Shown piece after piece: positions 5,568-58,353 of a stretch of 64,000 bases of DNA. Position 1 is the stretch's first letter. Each line of letters starts with the position of its first letter. A program made the position numbers and the translations under genes. The notes beneath the pieces were generated by a model. That model was given only the letters and a program-made list of their open reading frames with translations, searched no databases and had not been told where the DNA came from. This stretch comes from an uncultured SAR86 cluster bacterium (GTDB lineage Bacteria; Pseudomonadota; Gammaproteobacteria; Magnimaribacterales; D2472): the NCBI GenBank assembly GCA_964276235.1, contig CAXYEK010000001.1, positions 278,061 through 342,060 of the forward strand. The letters run 5' to 3'.

Positions 5568-6375
5568 AAAGTTTAAATTAGGAGTTGTAGGCAATCCTAT
5601 AGAACATTCTTTATCTCCTTTTATTCATTCACGCTTTGCACGTCATGAGAATATTAATCTGGAATATCAAGCATATAAAGTAGAGAAAGATAATTTTAAT
5701 AATTTTGTATCTGATTTTTTTACCAACCCAAATGCAAAAGGATTAAATATAACCTTACCCTTTAAATCAATGGCTTCAAAAATTAATGGAAAAATTTCAG
5801 AGGAAGCTAAATATATAAATGCAGTTAATACTATTACCAAATTTCAAAATAGTTTGTCTCTAGAAACAACAGATGGCTCTGGGTTTATGCGTGACCTTGA
5901 AATAAATAATATTAAAGTTGCTGGAAAGAATATTCTTATTATTGGAGCAGGAGCAGCGGTAGAGAGCATCTTATATAAACTAGTTTTAGATAATCCTAAT
6001 TCAATTACTATTTTAAATAGAAGCCAAGACAAAGCAGACAAGCTGCAAAATAGATATGTAGAACAAAAAAAGATTAGCTCAGCCTTGCCTGCTAATAAAA
6101 GTTTTGATCTCGTAATTAATGGAAGCTCTGCTGGCTTAACAGGCGATTTTAAAGCACCTGGAGATATTCAAATATCTAACAAGACCTCTTTTTATGATCT
6201 CAATTATTCTCTAGATACAACCCCTTTTTGCGATTGGGCTCTGAATAACTCCTCTCTTGTATATGATGGGATTGGGATGCTTGTAAATCAAGCGTCTATA
6301 TCTTTTCAATTATGGTTTGATGTTGTTCCTGAAACTAAAAAGGTCTTAGAAGAAATCAAAAGTTTAAAAGAATGA
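5560..6375 (+). CDS. aroE: Shikimate dehydrogenase
   Basis: GNPIEHSLSPFIHSRF N-terminus and GAGAA Rossmann motif. Overlaps the hemF end. Confidence 0.85.
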   Translation: MSKKFKLGVVGNPIEHSLSPFIHSRFARHENINLEYQAYKVEKDNFNNFVSDFFTNPNAKGLNITLPFKSMASKINGKISEEAKYINAVNTITKFQNSLSLETTDGSGFMRDLEINNIKVAGKNILIIGAGAAVESILYKLVLDNPNSITILNRSQDKADKLQNRYVEQKKISSALPANKSFDLVINGSSAGLTGDFKAPGDIQISNKTSFYDLNYSLDTTPFCDWALNNSSLVYDGIGMLVNQASISFQLWFDVVPETKKVLEEIKSLKE

Positions 6376-30089: not shown

Positions 30090-31484
30090 TTAATATTTGT
30101 AGCTTTCTTCTTTGAAAGGACCTTCTTGCGGCACGTTAATATAATCAGCTTGATCTTGAGTAAGTTTAGTTATAACTCCTCCAAAACCGGCAACCATTAA
30201 TGCAGCAACTTCTTCATCAAGCTTTTTAGGAAGTACTTCAACAGTAATCATTTCTGCTTTTGTATCCTCATCATTAATATTTGCAAAACCTTGCTTATAT
30301 AAATGTATTTGCGCTAAAACTTGGTTAGCAAATGAGCCATCCATAATTCTACTTGGATGTCCTGTTGCATTACCCAGATTAACTAATCGACCTTCAGCTA
30401 AAAGAATAAGATAGTTTTTGCTGGTTTGGTCTGGTGTTCCATCAGGCTTTGTATCTCTAAATATCCTATGAACTTGCGGTTTAATCTCATCCCAATAATA
30501 ATTATCTCTCATAAATGCAGTGTCAATCTCATTATCAAAATGACCGATATTACAAACGACAGCAGTATTTTTTAATGTAGCTAACATTGCAGCGTCACAA
30601 ACATTAACATTACCTGTTGTTGTAACAATTAAATCAGTGTTACCCATTACTTCCATATTGATATCTGATTCGTTTCTTGAAACAGCACCATCTTTATAAC
30701 AGGATACAACTGCAAAACCATCCATACAGGCCTGCATCGCACAAATAGGATCTGATTCAACAACACTTACTATCATTCCTTCTTGAGCTAGACTAGCTGC
30801 TGATCCTTTACCAACATCTCCATAACCAATTACAAGGCCTCTTTTGCCCATAAGGAGCATATCAGTTCCTCTTTTAAGAGCGTCATTGAGGCTATGTCTG
30901 CAACCATATTTGTTGTCATTTTTAGCTTTAGTAACTGAATCATTAACGTTAATAGCAGGTATTTTTAACTCACCTTTTTCTAACATTTCTTTGAGTCTGT
31001 GAACTCCAGTAGTAGTTTCTTCTGAAACACCATGAATAGTTTCTAACATATCTGGAAATTTTTCATGAACCATTGCAGTAAGATCACTTCCATCATCAAG
31101 AATCATATTTGCATCCCAAGGTTTTCCATCTTTACAGATAGTTTGCTCAATGCACCATTCAAACTCTTCGTCTGTTTCACCTTTCCAAGCAAAAGTTGGT
31201 ATACCTTTGGCAGCCATTGCAGCTGCAGCATGATCTTGAGTAGAGAAAATATTACAAGAAGACCATCTTAGTTCTGCTCCTAAATCTATTAATGTTTCCA
31301 TTAGAACTGCAGTTTGAATTGTCATATGAATACAACCCATAATTTTTGCATTGGCCAAAGGCTGTTCGTCTCTGTACTTATCTCTAAGTGCCATTAAGGC
31401 TGGCATTTCATTTTCAGCTAGAGATATCTCTCTTCTTCCAAATTCGGCAAGACTTATATCTGCTACTTTATAATCGTTTTCCAT
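30090..31484 (-). CDS. ahcY: Adenosylhomocysteinase
   Basis: 464 aa with a [11 protein letters not shown] motif and a typical SAHH N-terminus ([16 protein letters not shown]). Confidence 0.95.
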
Positions 31485-38929: not shown

Positions 38930-39170
38930 CTTTGTCTTTTTTTCCAGAAAGATCTAATTCTTCCATTCTCATTTCATTAAAAACATCTTTTTTAATTTCT
39001 TCAGTACCAATTTCAGATTCAATATCGTTCTTAAAACCAGAAATTTGGTTTTGTATTTTTTTATAAAATTTTAAGCAAGTTTTAATAACTTGTGGGAGTC
39101 TTGAGGGTCCAATAATAATTAATCCTAAAATAAGGATTAGCGCAATTTCGAGAAAACCAATTTGAAACAA
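38922..39170 (-). CDS. tatB: Twin-arginine translocase subunit TatB
   Basis: MFQIGFLEIALILILGLIIIGPSRLP is a TatA/B-type N-terminus (TTG start). Located between tatA and tatC. Confidence 0.75.
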   Translation of the reverse strand: MFQIGFLEIALILILGLIIIGPSRLPQVIKTCLKFYKKIQNQISGFKNDIESEIGTEEIKKDVFNEMRMEELDLSGKKDKDG

Positions 39171-39173
39171 TTT

Positions 39174-39341
39174 TTATTCGTCTTTATTTTCTTCTTTATC
39201 TTCTTTTACAGCTTTTTTAAATCCCTTAAGACTAGCTCCAAGGTCAGAGCCCAAAGATTTTAATTTACCACTTCCAAAAATCAAAAGAATGACAGCTAAA
39301 ATTATTAGTAATTGCCAAATGCTTATTCCACCAAAGCCCAT
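39174..39341 (-). CDS. tatA: Twin-arginine translocase subunit TatA (55 aa)
   Basis: Below the ORF-track cut-off. Manual translation gives [55 protein letters not shown]. Confidence 0.85.
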
Positions 39342-39350
39342 ATGAATCTC

Positions 39351-49506: not shown

Positions 49507-51660
49507 CTAGAAATTATTTGCCACAGATGACTTAGCAAAGTTTAATCTTTCCTTTCTATCCTCTGGTGCAGGCGCATCACCTAGTTTTCCGCCACTATTA
49601 GCTAGTTTTACAAGCAAATCACTTGGTTTGTAGACATCGTTACCAGTAATTGCTGCATATTTTTCTAATTTTTCAACAACTACATCTAAACCCATGGCAT
49701 TTGCATGATGCATAGGACCACCTCGCCATATAGGGAAACCATAGCCATTAATATAGACTACGTCTAAATCAGCAGCTCTTTGAGCTACGCCTTCAGATAA
49801 TATATCAGCACCTTCGTTGATAAGAGCAAGAATGCATCTATCCACAATTTCTACATCTGAGATTTCTCTTCTTGTAAAACCATTTTCAGCAGATATTTTT
49901 TCATATGTTGCTTCATTTTCTGGAGCAGGATTTGGAGCTCTAGATCCTTCATTATAATTGTAATAACCTTTTCCATTTTTCTGTCCAAACCTATCATTGT
50001 CACAAAGGTTATCACCTATTTTTGCATGTAATGGAGATTCCATGCCACCAAGCTTTCTTGCTCTCCAACCAAGATCTAGACCAACTAGGTCCATCATTCT
50101 AAAAGGACCCATGTTCAGGCCAAATGATTCTAATGCTTGATCAACTTGATGAGGCAGGGCACCTTCTAAAAGTAACATGTTCGCTTGAGCCGTATAACCA
50201 AACAACATTCTGTTTCCAATAAACCCAGGAGCATTTAAAGATACTACTGCTGCCTTCTTAATCTTTTTACTAACAGCCATTACTGTAGCTAGAGTTTCAT
50301 GAGATGTTGCCTCTCCTCTTACCACCTCTAAAAGCTTCATTATATTAGCTGGACTAAAAAAGTGAGTACCTACTACCATTTCAGGTCTTTTAGTTACTGC
50401 AGCTATAGAATCTATATCAAGACCAGATGTATTACTTGCTAGGATAGCTCCTGGCTTTACATGCTCATCTAAGCTCTTAAATATTTCCATTTTCAAGTCA
50501 ATATTTTCGTAGACTGCTTCGATTGCTATGTCACAATCATGAAGATCTTTGTACTCTAAACTTGAAGAAATTAGACCAAAAACCATGTCTTTCTGTTCTG
50601 ATGTCATTCTTCCTCTTCCAACCATGAAGTCATAATTTTTTTCAATTACAGACATACCTCTTTTAAGGTTTTCTTCATCTTGGTCAATAATATGTACAGG
50701 TATACCAGCATTAGCAAAACACATTGCTATTCCGCCACCCATTGTTCCTGATCCAATAATTCCAGCTTTTTTAATATCCATAATAGGAGTATCTTTAGGT
50801 ACATCTGAAACTTTAGACGCAGCTCTTTCTCCAAAGAATATATGTATCATTGCCTCTCTTTGAGGATGAACTAAACACTCTAAAAAGTAATCGCCCTCTT
50901 TCTTTAATCCCTCATCGAAATCATCTAAATTTATAGCTGCTTCAACACATTTGATTATCTGACCAGGTGCAAATTGACCTTTTCTTGTTTTTGCTGCCAT
51001 TGCTTGTGCTTCTACAAGAACGTTATCTGATCCTCTAGCTTCTATCATTTTATCGTTGAGATTTCTAACCATTGGATGACTATCGCTACTAACAGCCTTA
51101 TCTTTGATAAACGCTATCGAGTCTTCGACAACATTATCCGACAATGAATCCACAATACCCATTGATAATGCTTTTTTTGCAGGCACATGAGCACCTGATA
51201 GCATCATTTTCAACGCTTCTGCAGGCCCAACTAGTCTGGGTAATCTTTGCGTTCCGCCACCACCTGGAAGAAGTCCAAGATTGACTTCTGGAAGCCCAAC
51301 AAATGCTGAATTTGAAGCTATTCTATAATTACAACAAAGAGCAGTTTCTAATCCACCGCCGAGTGCAAGTCCATTCAAAGCAGCAACTAAAGGCTTTGAG
51401 CAGTATTCTAGGCTCTTAAAGACACTATTAAGGCTATGTCCTTCACCTTTACCACCAAATTCAGAAATATCAGCACCAGCTATGAAAGCTCTGCCTTTCC
51501 CAGTTAAAACTACTCCGACAACCTCAGTATCAGCTTCAGCCTTAGCTATGCCTTCATATAGACCATTTCTAACACCCTCACTTAAAGGATTTACAGGTGG
51601 GTTATCGACCGTTAGAAGGGCTACACCATCTCTAACTTCATAATGAACAGTTCCTTTCAA
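49507..51660 (-). CDS. Bifunctional enoyl-CoA hydratase / 3-hydroxyacyl-CoA dehydrogenase (FadB/FadJ-like)
   Basis: N-terminal crotonase fold (FIAGADISEF, GGGLE) and central IGSGTMGGGIA NAD motif; 717 aa, TTG start. No fadA is adjacent. Confidence 0.85.
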   Translation of the reverse strand: MKGTVHYEVRDGVALLTVDNPPVNPLSEGVRNGLYEGIAKAEADTEVVGVVLTGKGRAFIAGADISEFGGKGEGHSLNSVFKSLEYCSKPLVAALNGLALGGGLETALCCNYRIASNSAFVGLPEVNLGLLPGGGGTQRLPRLVGPAEALKMMLSGAHVPAKKALSMGIVDSLSDNVVEDSIAFIKDKAVSSDSHPMVRNLNDKMIEARGSDNVLVEAQAMAAKTRKGQFAPGQIIKCVEAAINLDDFDEGLKKEGDYFLECLVHPQREAMIHIFFGERAASKVSDVPKDTPIMDIKKAGIIGSGTMGGGIAMCFANAGIPVHIIDQDEENLKRGMSVIEKNYDFMVGRGRMTSEQKDMVFGLISSSLEYKDLHDCDIAIEAVYENIDLKMEIFKSLDEHVKPGAILASNTSGLDIDSIAAVTKRPEMVVGTHFFSPANIMKLLEVVRGEATSHETLATVMAVSKKIKKAAVVSLNAPGFIGNRMLFGYTAQANMLLLEGALPHQVDQALESFGLNMGPFRMMDLVGLDLGWRARKLGGMESPLHAKIGDNLCDNDRFGQKNGKGYYNYNEGSRAPNPAPENEATYEKISAENGFTRREISDVEIVDRCILALINEGADILSEGVAQRAADLDVVYINGYGFPIWRGGPMHHANAMGLDVVVEKLEKYAAITGNDVYKPSDLLVKLANSGGKLGDAPAPEDRKERLNFAKSSVANNF

Positions 51661-51727
51661 TTTATTCTCCTAAATTTGCTGAAAAAGTATTATACATAAA
51701 TAATTACAACTTTCTTTATAAATGTTA

Positions 51728-51755
51728 TTGATAATCAATTATAAGTATGTATAAT
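51728..51755 (+). promoter_or_regulatory. Sigma70-like promoter TTGATA-N16-TATAAT
   Basis: -35 TTGATA at 51728-51733 and -10 TATAAT at 51750-51755, read directly. The predicted start, near 51761, coincides with the first base of a stem-loop. Confidence 0.45.
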
Positions 51756-51760
51756 AAAGA

Positions 51761-51838
51761 GTCAGCTTAACTCTCCCCCCTATTAGAATTTGCTGACACT
51801 CTGAAATAGTATGGAGAGCTTCGGCTCTCCATTTTTTA
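51761..51838 (+). ncRNA. Candidate small RNA or cis-acting leader: C-rich stem-loop plus intrinsic terminator
   Basis: GUCAGC (51761-66) pairs with GCUGAC (51792-97), and the loop contains CUCUCCCCCC. Then GGAGAGC-UUCG-GCUCUCC (51813-30) and U6. No upstream + strand gene needs this terminator. Confidence 0.45.
51813..51837 (+). terminator. Rho-independent terminator (7-bp GC-rich stem, UUCG tetraloop, U6)
   Basis: GGAGAGC TTCG GCTCTCC A TTTTTT, read directly. Confidence 0.75.
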
Positions 51839-51859
51839 ATCAAACAATAAGGTTTTTAA

Positions 51860-51946
51860 ATGGAAAAGTATAAAGAAGTATTTGAAACAGCCGCATTAGT
51901 AAGTTTCTTTCTCATATCAATAATAGCAATCGCACCGATTACATAA
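51860..51946 (+). CDS. Candidate 28-aa hydrophobic micro-protein
   Basis: Manual translation gives MEKYKEVFETAALVSFFLISIIAIAPIT*. AAGG lies 7 nt upstream of the ATG. There is one predicted TM helix. It lies between the terminator and gpx. Confidence 0.3.
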   Translation: MEKYKEVFETAALVSFFLISIIAIAPIT

Positions 51947-51967
51947 TTAGTCATATATAATAATTAT

Positions 51968-52495
51968 ATGAAAAAATCATATATATTTAGTTTTTTAATA
52001 TTATTTTCAATACATGGTCATTCATGTACTGATCTTCTAGATACTGACATGAGAATTTTAGATTCAGCAGAATCTAGAAATCTTTGCGAATATGAAGGAA
52101 AAACTCTCTTGGTCGTTAATGTTGCCAGTAGGTGTGGATACACTTATCAATATGCAGGCCTTCAAAATTTATATGAAAAATATAAAGAAGATGATTTTCT
52201 TGTTATCGGAATACCTTCAAGAGATTTTCTTCAAGAATACTCTGATGAAAGTGATGTTGCCGAATTCTGTTCAACTGAATACGGTGTAGATTTTCCTATG
52301 TTCTCGACAGTTAAGGTCAGAGGAAAAAAAGCACATCCTTTTTATAAAAAATTGAAAGCTGAATCTGGAGTTGCACCAAGCTGGAACTTTAATAAGTTTT
52401 TAATATCTAAAGAAGGAAAAGTTATCTCTACATATGGCTCAGGTATAAAGCCTGATTCAATAGAGCTAATTTCTGCAATAGAAAAACTTCTATAA
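51968..52495 (+). CDS. Glutathione peroxidase family protein (Cys-type, BtuE-like) with a signal peptide
   Basis: VNVASRCGYT (Cys codon TGT, not UGA), FPMF and WNFNKFLI motifs. The N-terminus is hydrophobic. Confidence 0.85.
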   Translation: MKKSYIFSFLILFSIHGHSCTDLLDTDMRILDSAESRNLCEYEGKTLLVVNVASRCGYTYQYAGLQNLYEKYKEDDFLVIGIPSRDFLQEYSDESDVAEFCSTEYGVDFPMFSTVKVRGKKAHPFYKKLKAESGVAPSWNFNKFLISKEGKVISTYGSGIKPDSIELISAIEKLL

Positions 52496-57040: not shown

Positions 57041-57607
57041 TTAGGCGAAGGAATGTATATGACTTTCAGTAATAACTAAATCATATTTCAGATCATGGGC
57101 TTCACCAAAAGCCTCTTTACAAGCTTGATAATCGTAACCTAAGCCAACAATCAATGGTTTAACTTTCGAGTTCTTTAGAACCTCTAAGGACCTATCAAAG
57201 TATCCCCCACCATATCCAAGCCTAAAGCCATTAGAGTCCACCCCAACGAAAGGAATAAACATGCATTGAAAAGACAAAGGATCTAGATATTTGTTGTTAT
57301 CTAGTTCATTTATTCCATATTGATTTGTTATTAAAGGACCGTCATTTTTTAAATTAAACAACATATTCTTACCAGATATAATTCTAGGCACATAAATATT
57401 ATTTGAGTATTTTCTCAATTCATCCTCAATTAAATCAACAGTAATTTCTTTTCTATAAGGGAAATATAAAAGACTATTAGTCATAGATTTAATATCTATT
57501 TCTTTTAAAGCCTTGGATTGTATTATCAAATTTGCATCTGAAATAAAGCTATCAGATAAGGACTGCCCCTGCTCAAAGAGTGATTTTCGTATCTTATTTT
57601 TCACCAT
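57041..57607 (-). CDS. ygfA: 5-formyltetrahydrofolate cyclo-ligase
   Basis: GYGGGYFDR motif. Its position immediately downstream of 6S RNA matches E. coli. I prefer the start at Met8 (57607) because the longer ORF would overlap ssrS. Confidence 0.8.
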   Translation of the reverse strand: MVKNKIRKSLFEQGQSLSDSFISDANLIIQSKALKEIDIKSMTNSLLYFPYRKEITVDLIEDELRKYSNNIYVPRIISGKNMLFNLKNDGPLITNQYGINELDNNKYLDPLSFQCMFIPFVGVDSNGFRLGYGGGYFDRSLEVLKNSKVKPLIVGLGYDYQACKEAFGEAHDLKYDLVITESHIHSFA

Positions 57608-57619
57608 AAATTGTGCCGA

Positions 57620-57800
57620 GGCTAACAAACCAAATCACCGCCATGTGTCATACCTGAACCGAAGGGTCAGGTGGTGAATTTCTTTTCAAATCAGGCTTCC
57701 CTTTAAAGGTAGTGCTCAACAATGACAGAGGAATATCACCTATTTAATTGTATCGGTTCAAATTTATTAACACATTAGCGAATGAACCAGAATGTTACAA
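57620..57800 (-). ncRNA. ssrS: 6S RNA (ends approximate)
   Basis: The minus-strand RNA contains GAACCGAUA, GGGAAGCCU and AAAUUCACCACCUGACCCUUCGGUUCAGG...GGCGGUG. These parallel E. coli 6S GAGCCGAUA, GAGAAGCCU and ACAUUCACCUUGAACCAAGGGUUCAAGG...GGCGGC. The terminal arms UAACA/UGUUA pair. zapA-ssrS-ygfA synteny holds, and a -10-like TATACT lies at 57807-57802. Confidence 0.8.
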
Positions 57801-57832
57801 AAGTATAGGATATATAGGCTCTGAGGGGAAGA

Positions 57833-58099
57833 TTATTTTTCCAAGGCAGAGTCTATTTTTTTTATGAGACTAGAAAAATCATCATTAGATTCAATTGAAT
57901 TTTTTTCAGGGTTAGATAGTAGCTTATTAGATATGCTTAGACCTGCAATTATAAGGGCATTATTTTTATCGCTGATAGAATCCAACTCTGTATTTAAAAG
58001 TTTTGCTGCTTGAATTAGTTGATCTTTCTCTTCAGAAGGACATGATAAAGTTAGATCTCTCCCAAATATTCTTAATGACAGTGTTTCCATTTCACTCAT
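57833..58099 (-). CDS. zapA: Cell division protein ZapA
   Basis: 88 aa. LRIFGRDLTLSCPSEEKDQLIQAAKLLN is a ZapA-type N-terminus. Synteny with ssrS and ygfA. Confidence 0.75.
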   Translation of the reverse strand: MSEMETLSLRIFGRDLTLSCPSEEKDQLIQAAKLLNTELDSISDKNNALIIAGLSISNKLLSNPEKNSIESNDDFSSLIKKIDSALEK

Positions 58100-58289
58100 T
58101 GTTTTTCTCTTTGCTTAATTTAGTTTTTAATTGAGATATTTCTTTATTTTGAAGAATTTTATTTTTCTTCCAATCTCGCTCCCTTTCAACATAAGAATCA
58201 ATTATCCCTTTTTGTTCTTCAAAACGTTTAACCAAAAGATTAACTTTTTCTTCGAGACTGTTAAATGATGAGTTTTCTTTTTCTGACAT
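58092..58289 (-). CDS. Small coiled-coil protein (TIGR02449-like / ZapB-like)
   Basis: 65 aa, heptad-rich. It overlaps the zapA start, an arrangement I recall from Pseudomonas. Confidence 0.5.
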   Translation of the reverse strand: MSEKENSSFNSLEEKVNLLVKRFEEQKGIIDSYVERERDWKKNKILQNKEISQLKTKLSKEKNNE

Positions 58290-58353
58290 TCTATAAGTTT
58301 AATTGCACATCAATGAATTGGAAAGTTTGTTTAATAAAAGAGTAAAATAAACC

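Follow-up and report, generated by a model that had tools for sequence, protein, structure and literature searches.

The spacer at positions 51661-51967 of a 64,000-nucleotide window from the genome of a SAR86 (Magnimaribacterales) gammaproteobacterium lies between a fadB-type gene and gpx, the gene of a glutathione-peroxidase family protein. Comparative analysis at the level of sequence shows that this spacer specifies a structured RNA of about 77 nucleotides (nt), hereafter the element, with a conserved promoter, two conserved helices and an enriched U-tract, that the RNA is followed by a micro open reading frame (micro-ORF) with coding status, and that the whole arrangement occupies a single genomic context. 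The reading that we favour, at slightly less than even confidence, is that of a terminator-based leader or attenuator which also releases a short RNA, with RNA, micro-ORF and gpx forming a SAR86-specific unit. A preliminary description of the spacer had proposed a candidate small RNA (sRNA) or transcription attenuator of an unrecognised family. This proposal stands, and the refutation tests named there, as far as they were run, were all survived; of the two readings that it offered, the evidence leans towards the cis-acting leader over the stand-alone RNA.

The promoter and the structured RNA

The promoter consists of a -35 hexamer, TTGATA (51728-51733, plus strand, as are the features below unless stated otherwise), and a -10 hexamer, TATAAT (51750-51755), separated by 16 nt, as originally reported. 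It is the best match in the 12 kb scanned, agreeing with the consensus at 11 of 12 positions, and it is nearly invariant among 130 distinct upstream sequences: TTGATA and the 16-nt spacer are each found in 129 of them, and the -10 box reads TATAAT in 110 and CATAAT in 20. Directly upstream, an A/T-rich tract (51710-51727) represents a possible UP element; by eye, a similar tract, TTTATTTTATAAA(A/T)..., immediately precedes TTGATA in the relatives. The -10 box is followed by a variable segment (51756-51760) and ends 6-8 nt before the core of stem 1 in 123 of the 130 sequences (5 nt in the window), and by virtue of this conserved distance the predicted start coincides with the first base of stem 1. 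From this geometry, transcription would be expected to start at about 51760-51762. Within the species (12 contigs with identical gpx; L194-L203, L166) the 307-nt spacer is nearly invariant, the only exceptions being 2-4 nt between the -10 box and stem 1, where the sequence is hypervariable and subject to indels, a U-tract of T5 or T6, and scattered substitutions, mostly in L194. The segment between the -10 box and stem 1 also varies between genomes.

The predicted transcript contains two hairpins, both found where the preliminary description had placed them. In stem 1 (P1), the 5' arm GUCAGC (51761-51766) pairs with the 3' arm GCUGAC (51792-51797) around a 25-nt loop (51767-51791), which carries the pyrimidine core CUCUCCCCCCUAU at 51771-51783. 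This core includes CUCUCC (51771-51776) and a run of six C (51775-51780), rightly regarded as atypical of this DNA: the window contains no other run of six C or six G, against a chance expectation of 5.4. A single-stranded linker with the motif CUCUGRAAU (CUCUGAAAU in the window) occupies 51799-51807 and leads to hairpin 2, AUGGAGAGC-UUCG-GCUCUCCAU (51811-51832), an intrinsic-terminator stem of 9 bp that extends beyond the originally reported GGAGAGC-UUCG-GCUCUCC (51813-51830). The U-tract at 51832-51837 is T6 in the window and T5 in most same-species contigs. The 79-nt RNA folds into exactly these two hairpins at -23.8 kcal/mol (z = -3.75), an energy matched by none of 200 shuffled sequences, and the C-run of the loop is predicted to be unpaired in this fold.

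Both helices are supported by compensatory changes. In the automatic alignments (A1-A4; MAFFT and covariance-model-fitted), the 3' arm of stem 1 fell out of register in several clades, so that covariation was understated. In alignment A5 the arms were anchored by hand and the sequences padded with N; being fitted to the structure, it is biased towards it, a bias that is partly met by a control in which the pairing partners were slid. In A5, 91.8% of the cells are paired, vs 34-51% with the 3' partners slid, and double-sided changes occur in 10 of the 17 base pairs, with none of 500 shuffles attaining the observed values. Stem 1 accounts for six of these pairs (of eight, with 90% of cells paired), its variants including UGUCAGC/GCUGACA, UACCAAC/GUUGGUA, CAUCAAC/GUUGAUG, UAUCGGC/GCCGAUA and CAGU/ACUG. 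Hairpin 2 accounts for four (of nine, with 93% of cells paired); its ends and three of its inner positions covary, as in GGAGAG/CUCUCC, GGAGGA/UCCUCC and GGGU/ACCC, around an invariant GGAG/CUCC core. The conservation test that had been suggested for the homologous loci thus returned very strong conservation, with compensatory changes in both helices.

The unpaired segments are conserved in sequence. The loop core CUCYCCCCCUAU is invariant or nearly so across 51 genomes and 125 distinct variants, and the linker CUCUGRAAU has an invariant U-C-U flanked by bases conserved to at least 90%. This conservation of loop and linker spans genomes with gpx proteins just 55-60% identical, and over the same range of genomes the synonymous sites of the micro-ORF differ by 25-49%.

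Hairpin 2 ranks first of the terminator-like sites in the 12 kb scanned, and among the three hairpin-plus-U sites on both strands of the whole window it alone is followed by an uninterrupted U run. The window copy has the full form of an intrinsic terminator, with a 9-bp stem, five G-C pairs, a UUCG loop and U6, and a hairpin free energy of -14.7 kcal/mol. The UUCG loop of the preliminary description is present in the window but proved to be lineage-specific, since relatives carry UCAG, UUUG, GCAA, UAAC and others. The tail consensus over 124 distinct variants is N-U-Y-U-U-U-U followed by an A run, and 71% of these variants have at least five U in the first eight tail nucleotides, vs 15% expected. 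Many tails are interrupted by C (for example CUCUUU or AUCUUUU), and in the L041 clade the hairpin is followed by GUCUAAUAAGG, without a U-tract, so that the intrinsic-terminator form is not present there. The other two hairpin-plus-U-rich sites of the window lie at 6275-6297 (+), with the tail AUAUCUUUU, and at 30428-30448 (+), with the tail UUGUAUCUC; both tails are C-interrupted, like those after hairpin 2 in the relatives. Judged by these 64 kb, the genome appears to have few canonical intrinsic terminators.

The distribution of the element is narrow and its context uniform. A search with the gpx protein gave 73 loci, 51 from SAR86-cluster genomes and 22 from other taxa. The unit sought comprised the A/T tract, TTGATA-N16-TATAAT, stem 1 with its pyrimidine loop, the CUCUGRAAU linker, the GGAGGGC/GCCCUCC hairpin, the micro-ORF and gpx. 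It is complete in 50 of the 51 SAR86 loci, the lone exception having just 159 nt of upstream DNA, and it is found upstream of gpx at none of the 22 loci from other taxa, where no similar micro-ORF was detected either. Scanning of metagenome contigs with a degenerate pattern returned at least 120 loci, of which at least 115 are true copies, with a divergent fadB upstream and the micro-ORF and gpx downstream wherever the contig extends. Five pattern loci were rejected as additional copies; they lack both neighbours and any covariance-model match, and are thus chance matches of the pattern. The viral contigs contained no copy.

A covariance model of the element (R1), run on the window and on the 73 loci, detects a single copy in the window, at 71 bits, and one copy of 60-96 bits in every SAR86 genome locus that includes the upstream region, and it scores the tested metagenome copies missing a neighbour at 51-82 bits. 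No second copy was found by R1 in about 650 kb. All of the at least 165 confirmed copies are single-copy, belong to SAR86 and lie between fadB and the micro-ORF-gpx pair. Taken together, the single context and single copy found by R1 and the pattern scan indicate that the element is tied to one locus and restricted to SAR86.

The upstream neighbour, a fadB-type gene (enoyl-CoA hydratase / 3-hydroxyacyl-CoA dehydrogenase; Pfam ECH_1, 3HCDH_N and 3HCDH), occupies 49507-51660 on the minus strand and diverges from the element, as previously noted; it is the upstream neighbour in essentially all loci with enough DNA. Two minus-strand promoter-like sites face it. One is CTGACT-N16-TATAAT at 51738-51765 (-), which overlaps the plus-strand promoter and whose -35 box is the reverse complement of the 5' arm of stem 1; the other, nearer the start of fadB, is a conserved TATAAT (-) that reads ATTATA on the plus strand at 51689-51694. 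By eye, both sites recur in relatives. The species of the window is abundant, its identical gpx protein being indexed in 195 blocks of a public assembly collection, including samples from the Fram Strait; the contigs encoding this identical protein, looked up for metatranscriptome contig ends, are metagenome assemblies only.

The micro-ORF and gpx

The preliminary description had called the gap 51661-51967 non-coding and the longest stretch of the window without an assigned gene, and neither claim holds. Two ORF-free stretches are longer, 38930-39350 and 57629-58353; the former comprises 421 nt without an ORF of at least 90 aa. Moreover, the gap is partly coding because the micro-ORF inside it (51860-51946) is, to judge from its pattern of substitution, a genuine gene under purifying selection. 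It encodes a 28-aa hydrophobic protein, MEKYKEVFETAALVSFFLISIIAIAPIT, with one predicted transmembrane segment, and is present in at least 160 loci with lengths of 24-31 aa, mostly 25, 28 or 29. The ratio of nonsynonymous to synonymous differences (pN/pS) is 0.16, 0.05 and 0.21 in three length classes, and the invariant residues E9, L13, F17, S20, A23, I24 and P26 show the helical spacing expected of a single helix face. Neither Pfam nor NCBIfam has a family that the protein matches, and its gene is never called by public gene callers.

A Shine-Dalgarno-like AAGG (51849-51852) lies 7 nt before the ATG of the micro-ORF, and AAGG or AGGA is found at the same position in most relatives, being missing in some (for example L032 and L036). 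RNAalifold, applied to the stretch from the start site to the start codon, recovered hairpin 2 alone and no conserved helix sequestering the ribosome-binding site (RBS) of the micro-ORF. Since no structure is conserved over the RBS, any cis control would act on transcription. Hairpin 2 is separated from the micro-ORF ATG by 11-41 nt across the variants, and in the window the U-tract is 22 nt from the ATG at 51860; no conserved promoter-like hexamers occur in this interval, in agreement with the preliminary description. Taking into account that the micro-ORF is under selection and that the short gap offers no promoter, its transcription would have to pass hairpin 2. A promoter hidden in hairpin 2 or its tail was considered and rejected, a conserved -10 box being absent there. 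A leader peptide starting at the AUG of AUGGAG was likewise rejected, as the codon is GUG, UUG or UUA in other clades and forms part of the stem.

The gpx gene (51968-52495) begins 7-53 nt after the end of the micro-ORF and encodes a protein with an N-terminal hydrophobic signal-like segment, assigned by Pfam GSHPx (E = 4e-27); its score for the NCBIfam glutathione peroxidase model is under the cut-off. A possible promoter of its own is represented by a TATAAT at 51956-51961, which ends 6 nt upstream of the gpx start codon (ATG, 51968). A TATAAT-like box (at least five of six positions) ending 6-9 nt before this ATG is found in 66% of 94 distinct SAR86 sequences, vs 12% of shuffles, and a Shine-Dalgarno sequence is absent at the gpx start. 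These features point to a possible promoter at the micro-ORF's 3' end that may additionally yield a leaderless gpx mRNA, in which case the leader may gate mainly the micro-ORF.

Leader, small RNA and other explanations

According to the favoured reading, a strong and nearly invariant promoter of the sigma-70 type would start transcription at the first base of the 5'-terminal stem-loop P1, and the polymerase would then traverse the CUCUGRAAU linker, the G+C-rich hairpin (GGAGRGC/GYCYCUCC) and the U-rich tail, the last two acting as an intrinsic terminator. At this point the majority of polymerases would terminate, each releasing an RNA of about 77 nt. The remainder would read through, which would be the sole route of transcription for the gene of the 28-aa membrane protein and on which gpx may depend as well. 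Read-through could be tuned if the loop CUCUCC, the linker CUCU, or both, paired with the GGAGRG arm before its 3' partner is made, and a signal (a protein, a small molecule, an RNA or temperature) would stabilise this alternative pairing.

The sequences required for such a competition are present. Three segments are complementary to the GGAGRG 5' arm, namely the loop CUCUCC, the linker CUCU and the 3' arm itself. The pairing of loop and arm suggested in the preliminary description as an anti-terminator is possible in 95-97% of the aligned cells, in two registers, but it has no double-sided changes and does not outperform shuffles, so that the capacity to pair is confirmed and its covariation is not. 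The linker CUCU(G) can pair with (U)GGAG as a second competitor, and both of these partners are invariant. When transcripts are truncated before the 3' arm, the window sequence folds its loop CUCUCC with GGAGAG, and in relatives the linker (Y)CUCUG pairs with UGGAG(GG). As bare duplexes, the loop:arm helix reaches -8 to -10 kcal/mol and the linker:arm helix -4 to -8 kcal/mol, vs -12 to -17 kcal/mol for hairpin 2. The alternative helices are the weaker ones, and any switch would have to be under kinetic control or be aided by a stabilising factor. If the pairings constrain one another, this would account for a frozen GGAG/CUCC core and an invariant loop and linker beside a stem 1 that covaries. 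From this combination a possible competition between pairings is inferred, on which a putative signal would act.

Several observations weigh against the leader reading. The alternative pairings lack double-sided covariation above the level of shuffles, and they are 5-10 kcal/mol weaker than the terminator hairpin. The U-tract is absent in one clade and C-interrupted in many, and yet the hairpin is kept in all; its retention without a proper U-tract indicates a role of hairpin 2 beyond termination. Dependence of the downstream gene on read-through applies to the micro-ORF and is uncertain for gpx, which has a -10-like box and may be served by its own promoter. The start site, termination and dependence on read-through are themselves predictions from sequence. 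Furthermore, no ligand or binding protein can be named for the leader, and a distribution confined to a single locus in a single order is more typical of sRNA genes than of riboswitches. Aptamers of riboswitches precede different genes or occur in different lineages; the at least 165 copies of the element share one context and belong to SAR86 only. The most specific form of the idea is an orphan riboswitch of the ON type, or a similar RNA that senses directly, whose pseudoknotted aptamer would be built from the linker, the loop of P1 and the 5' arm of hairpin 2, and through which an oxidative-stress-related signal would switch on the small membrane protein and the peroxidase; it is given little credence.

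A stand-alone trans-acting sRNA of about 75-80 nt is a close rival and fits the anatomy of the element about as well as a leader, although it is possible rather than probable. The pyrimidine loop, and perhaps the CUCU linker, would serve as an anti-Shine-Dalgarno (anti-SD) seed for G-rich RBSs, and a leaky terminator would feed the micro-ORF. Consistent with this, the RNA has its own near-consensus promoter, its structure begins at the predicted start, a covarying stem accompanies invariant unpaired segments, a terminator hairpin followed by U residues closes it, it is single-copy and limited to one order, and its loop, predicted to be unpaired, holds the only C6 run in 64 kb. A promoter and terminator of its own together with a conserved unpaired seed are thus all present, but the RNA is not fully independent, with a promoterless micro-ORF 22 nt downstream. 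No complementary target site occurs in the 64-kb window, the only sequence scanned for targets. Several clades have a weak U-tail or none, which argues against clean release and an Hfq-bindable 3' end; an invariant terminator-stem sequence is unusual for the terminator of an sRNA, and the downstream gene appears to depend on read-through. The cis leader and the trans-acting sRNA are not mutually exclusive.

The position of P1 exactly at the predicted 5' end is also what would be expected if the leader were passive and sensed nothing, with P1 shielding the transcript from 5'-end-dependent decay and hairpin 2 acting as a constitutive partial terminator, pause or processing site that fixes a low output. 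The terminator differs in strength between clades as though tuned, and no covariation supports any switch. This explanation is nevertheless rather unlikely, as it does not account for the approximately 25 nearly invariant unpaired nucleotides of loop and linker or for the invariant GGAG/CUCC. A further alternative is a signal at the level of DNA, be it an operator serving fadB and gpx, divergent promoters of the two genes that overlap, or a C-rich site for the loading of Rho (rut). It could draw on the minus-strand promoter-like CTGACT, 16 nt, TATAAT (51765-51738), which uses the reverse complement of the 5' arm of stem 1 as its -35 box, and on the excess of C over G in the 77-nt RNA (20 vs 13). 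The compensatory changes in stem 1, however, preserve complementarity and not sequence across a spacer of 19-25 nt, and therefore indicate RNA pairing rather than a protein operator; the element also reaches about 70 nt past any promoter, and the C-rich stretch is just about 15 nt long and enclosed in a hairpin loop, far below the typical size of a rut site. Such a signal is consequently very improbable. Least probable of all is a module resembling type I toxin-antitoxin systems, in which the hydrophobic peptide would be a membrane toxin and the structured 5' untranslated region (UTR) would limit its expression. A peptide of 24-31 aa with one transmembrane segment behind a highly structured leader would suit this role, but synteny and a single copy of the locus are maintained throughout an order of streamlined genomes, the peptide is under strong purifying selection with one helical face invariant, a conserved antisense gene is not evident and the RBS is not sequestered.

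Relation to known RNAs and significance for SAR86

Comparison with the 4227 models of Rfam 15, in gathering-threshold and E-value modes, supports the view that the RNA belongs to no recognised family, as the preliminary description had stated: nothing in the spacer reaches the gathering threshold, the best sub-threshold score being about 23 bits, and 14 relatives likewise gave no match at threshold. For the relative L041, the E-value mode returned chance-level matches only, and these form a different set from those of the window. The sub-threshold matches, ctRNA_pND324 (RF00238, 23.1 bits), TarB (RF02538, 19.1 bits) and SorY (RF02651, 13.2 bits), lie far below their respective thresholds of 45, 80 and 111 bits. 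These RNAs are about as long as the element and likewise end, after a first hairpin, in a terminator hairpin with a U tail; the matches are generic two-hairpin resemblances.

The only Rfam family found at the gathering threshold in the window is 6S RNA (RF00013), at 57623-57796 (-) with 55.8 bits. It lies immediately upstream of a 5-formyltetrahydrofolate cyclo-ligase gene (57041-57628, -), an order which we take to be the ssrS-ygfA arrangement of E. coli. The remainder of the gap at 57.8-58.35 kb resembles small minus-strand genes.

With terminator/anti-terminator leaders and riboswitch platforms the element shares a promoter-proximal structured leader in which a G+C-rich hairpin and U residues precede the first ORF. 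In ON-type switches, an upstream segment pairs with the 5' arm of the intrinsic terminator, and arm-complementary upstream segments together with highly conserved unpaired nucleotides are a further trait in common with terminator/anti-terminator leaders. Unlike riboswitch platforms, the element occurs at one locus in one order, its alternative pairing lacks covariation and it matches no Rfam riboswitch. Premature termination yields sRNAs from 5' UTRs in the case of SreA/SreB of Listeria and rnTrpL of Sinorhizobium. The arrangement proposed here is similar, with one promoter giving a short terminated RNA, which could act in trans, and a read-through mRNA; those RNAs, however, contain a SAM riboswitch or a trp leader peptide as sensors, whereas no leader peptide precedes the terminator here.

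Likenesses to trans-acting RNAs concern mainly the pyrimidine-rich motifs. RsaE/RoxS of Firmicutes and the Rsa RNAs of Staphylococcus carry C-rich regions with UCCC motifs. The element and RsaE/RoxS have in common Shine-Dalgarno-complementary C-rich motifs in a hairpin loop and linker, an intrinsic terminator and a theme of redox or oxidative stress; they differ in phylum, sequence and architecture, the element is fused to a downstream operon, and no Rfam match to them was obtained at E <= 10. Oxidative stress induces the CcsR1-4 or 'cuckoo' RNAs of Rhodobacter, whose loops contain CCUCCUCCC and whose transcripts include a small ORF; they resemble the element in the pyrimidine-rich anti-SD motifs of their hairpin loops, the linkage to a small ORF and the oxidative-stress context. 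They are, however, repeated hairpins downstream of the small ORF in Alphaproteobacteria, whereas here a single 5' element is found in a gammaproteobacterial order, and homology between the element and CcsR1-4 was not detected.

In the SAR86 literature, Dupont et al. (2011; PMC3358033) placed an abundant non-coding RNA from marine metatranscriptomes, originally from Shi et al. (2009), by genes of glycolysis and the pentose-phosphate pathway in SAR86; because the gene content of the window does not match such a region, this RNA is not equated with the element. The paper that describes a SAR86 isolate, HIMB1674, does not mention RNA elements (PMC11582366). The RNA is thus absent from Rfam and from the literature searched, and in kind it is a lineage-specific leader or sRNA rather than a new principle.

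SAR86 bacteria rank among the most abundant heterotrophs in surface ocean waters; their genomes are small and streamlined, and they probably have few protein regulators. To our knowledge, little is known of their gene regulation. The locus adds two previously undescribed elements that the order conserves: one is a structured RNA with about 25 unpaired nucleotides that are invariant and a promoter that is strong, the other a membrane protein of 24-31 aa missed by gene callers. Both precede a peroxidase gene and stand back-to-back with a gene of fatty-acid oxidation. The existence of isolate HIMB1674 makes the hypotheses set out here experimentally testable. If the RNA does regulate peroxide defence, or acts globally through an anti-SD seed, it would be among the first regulatory mechanisms defined for SAR86.

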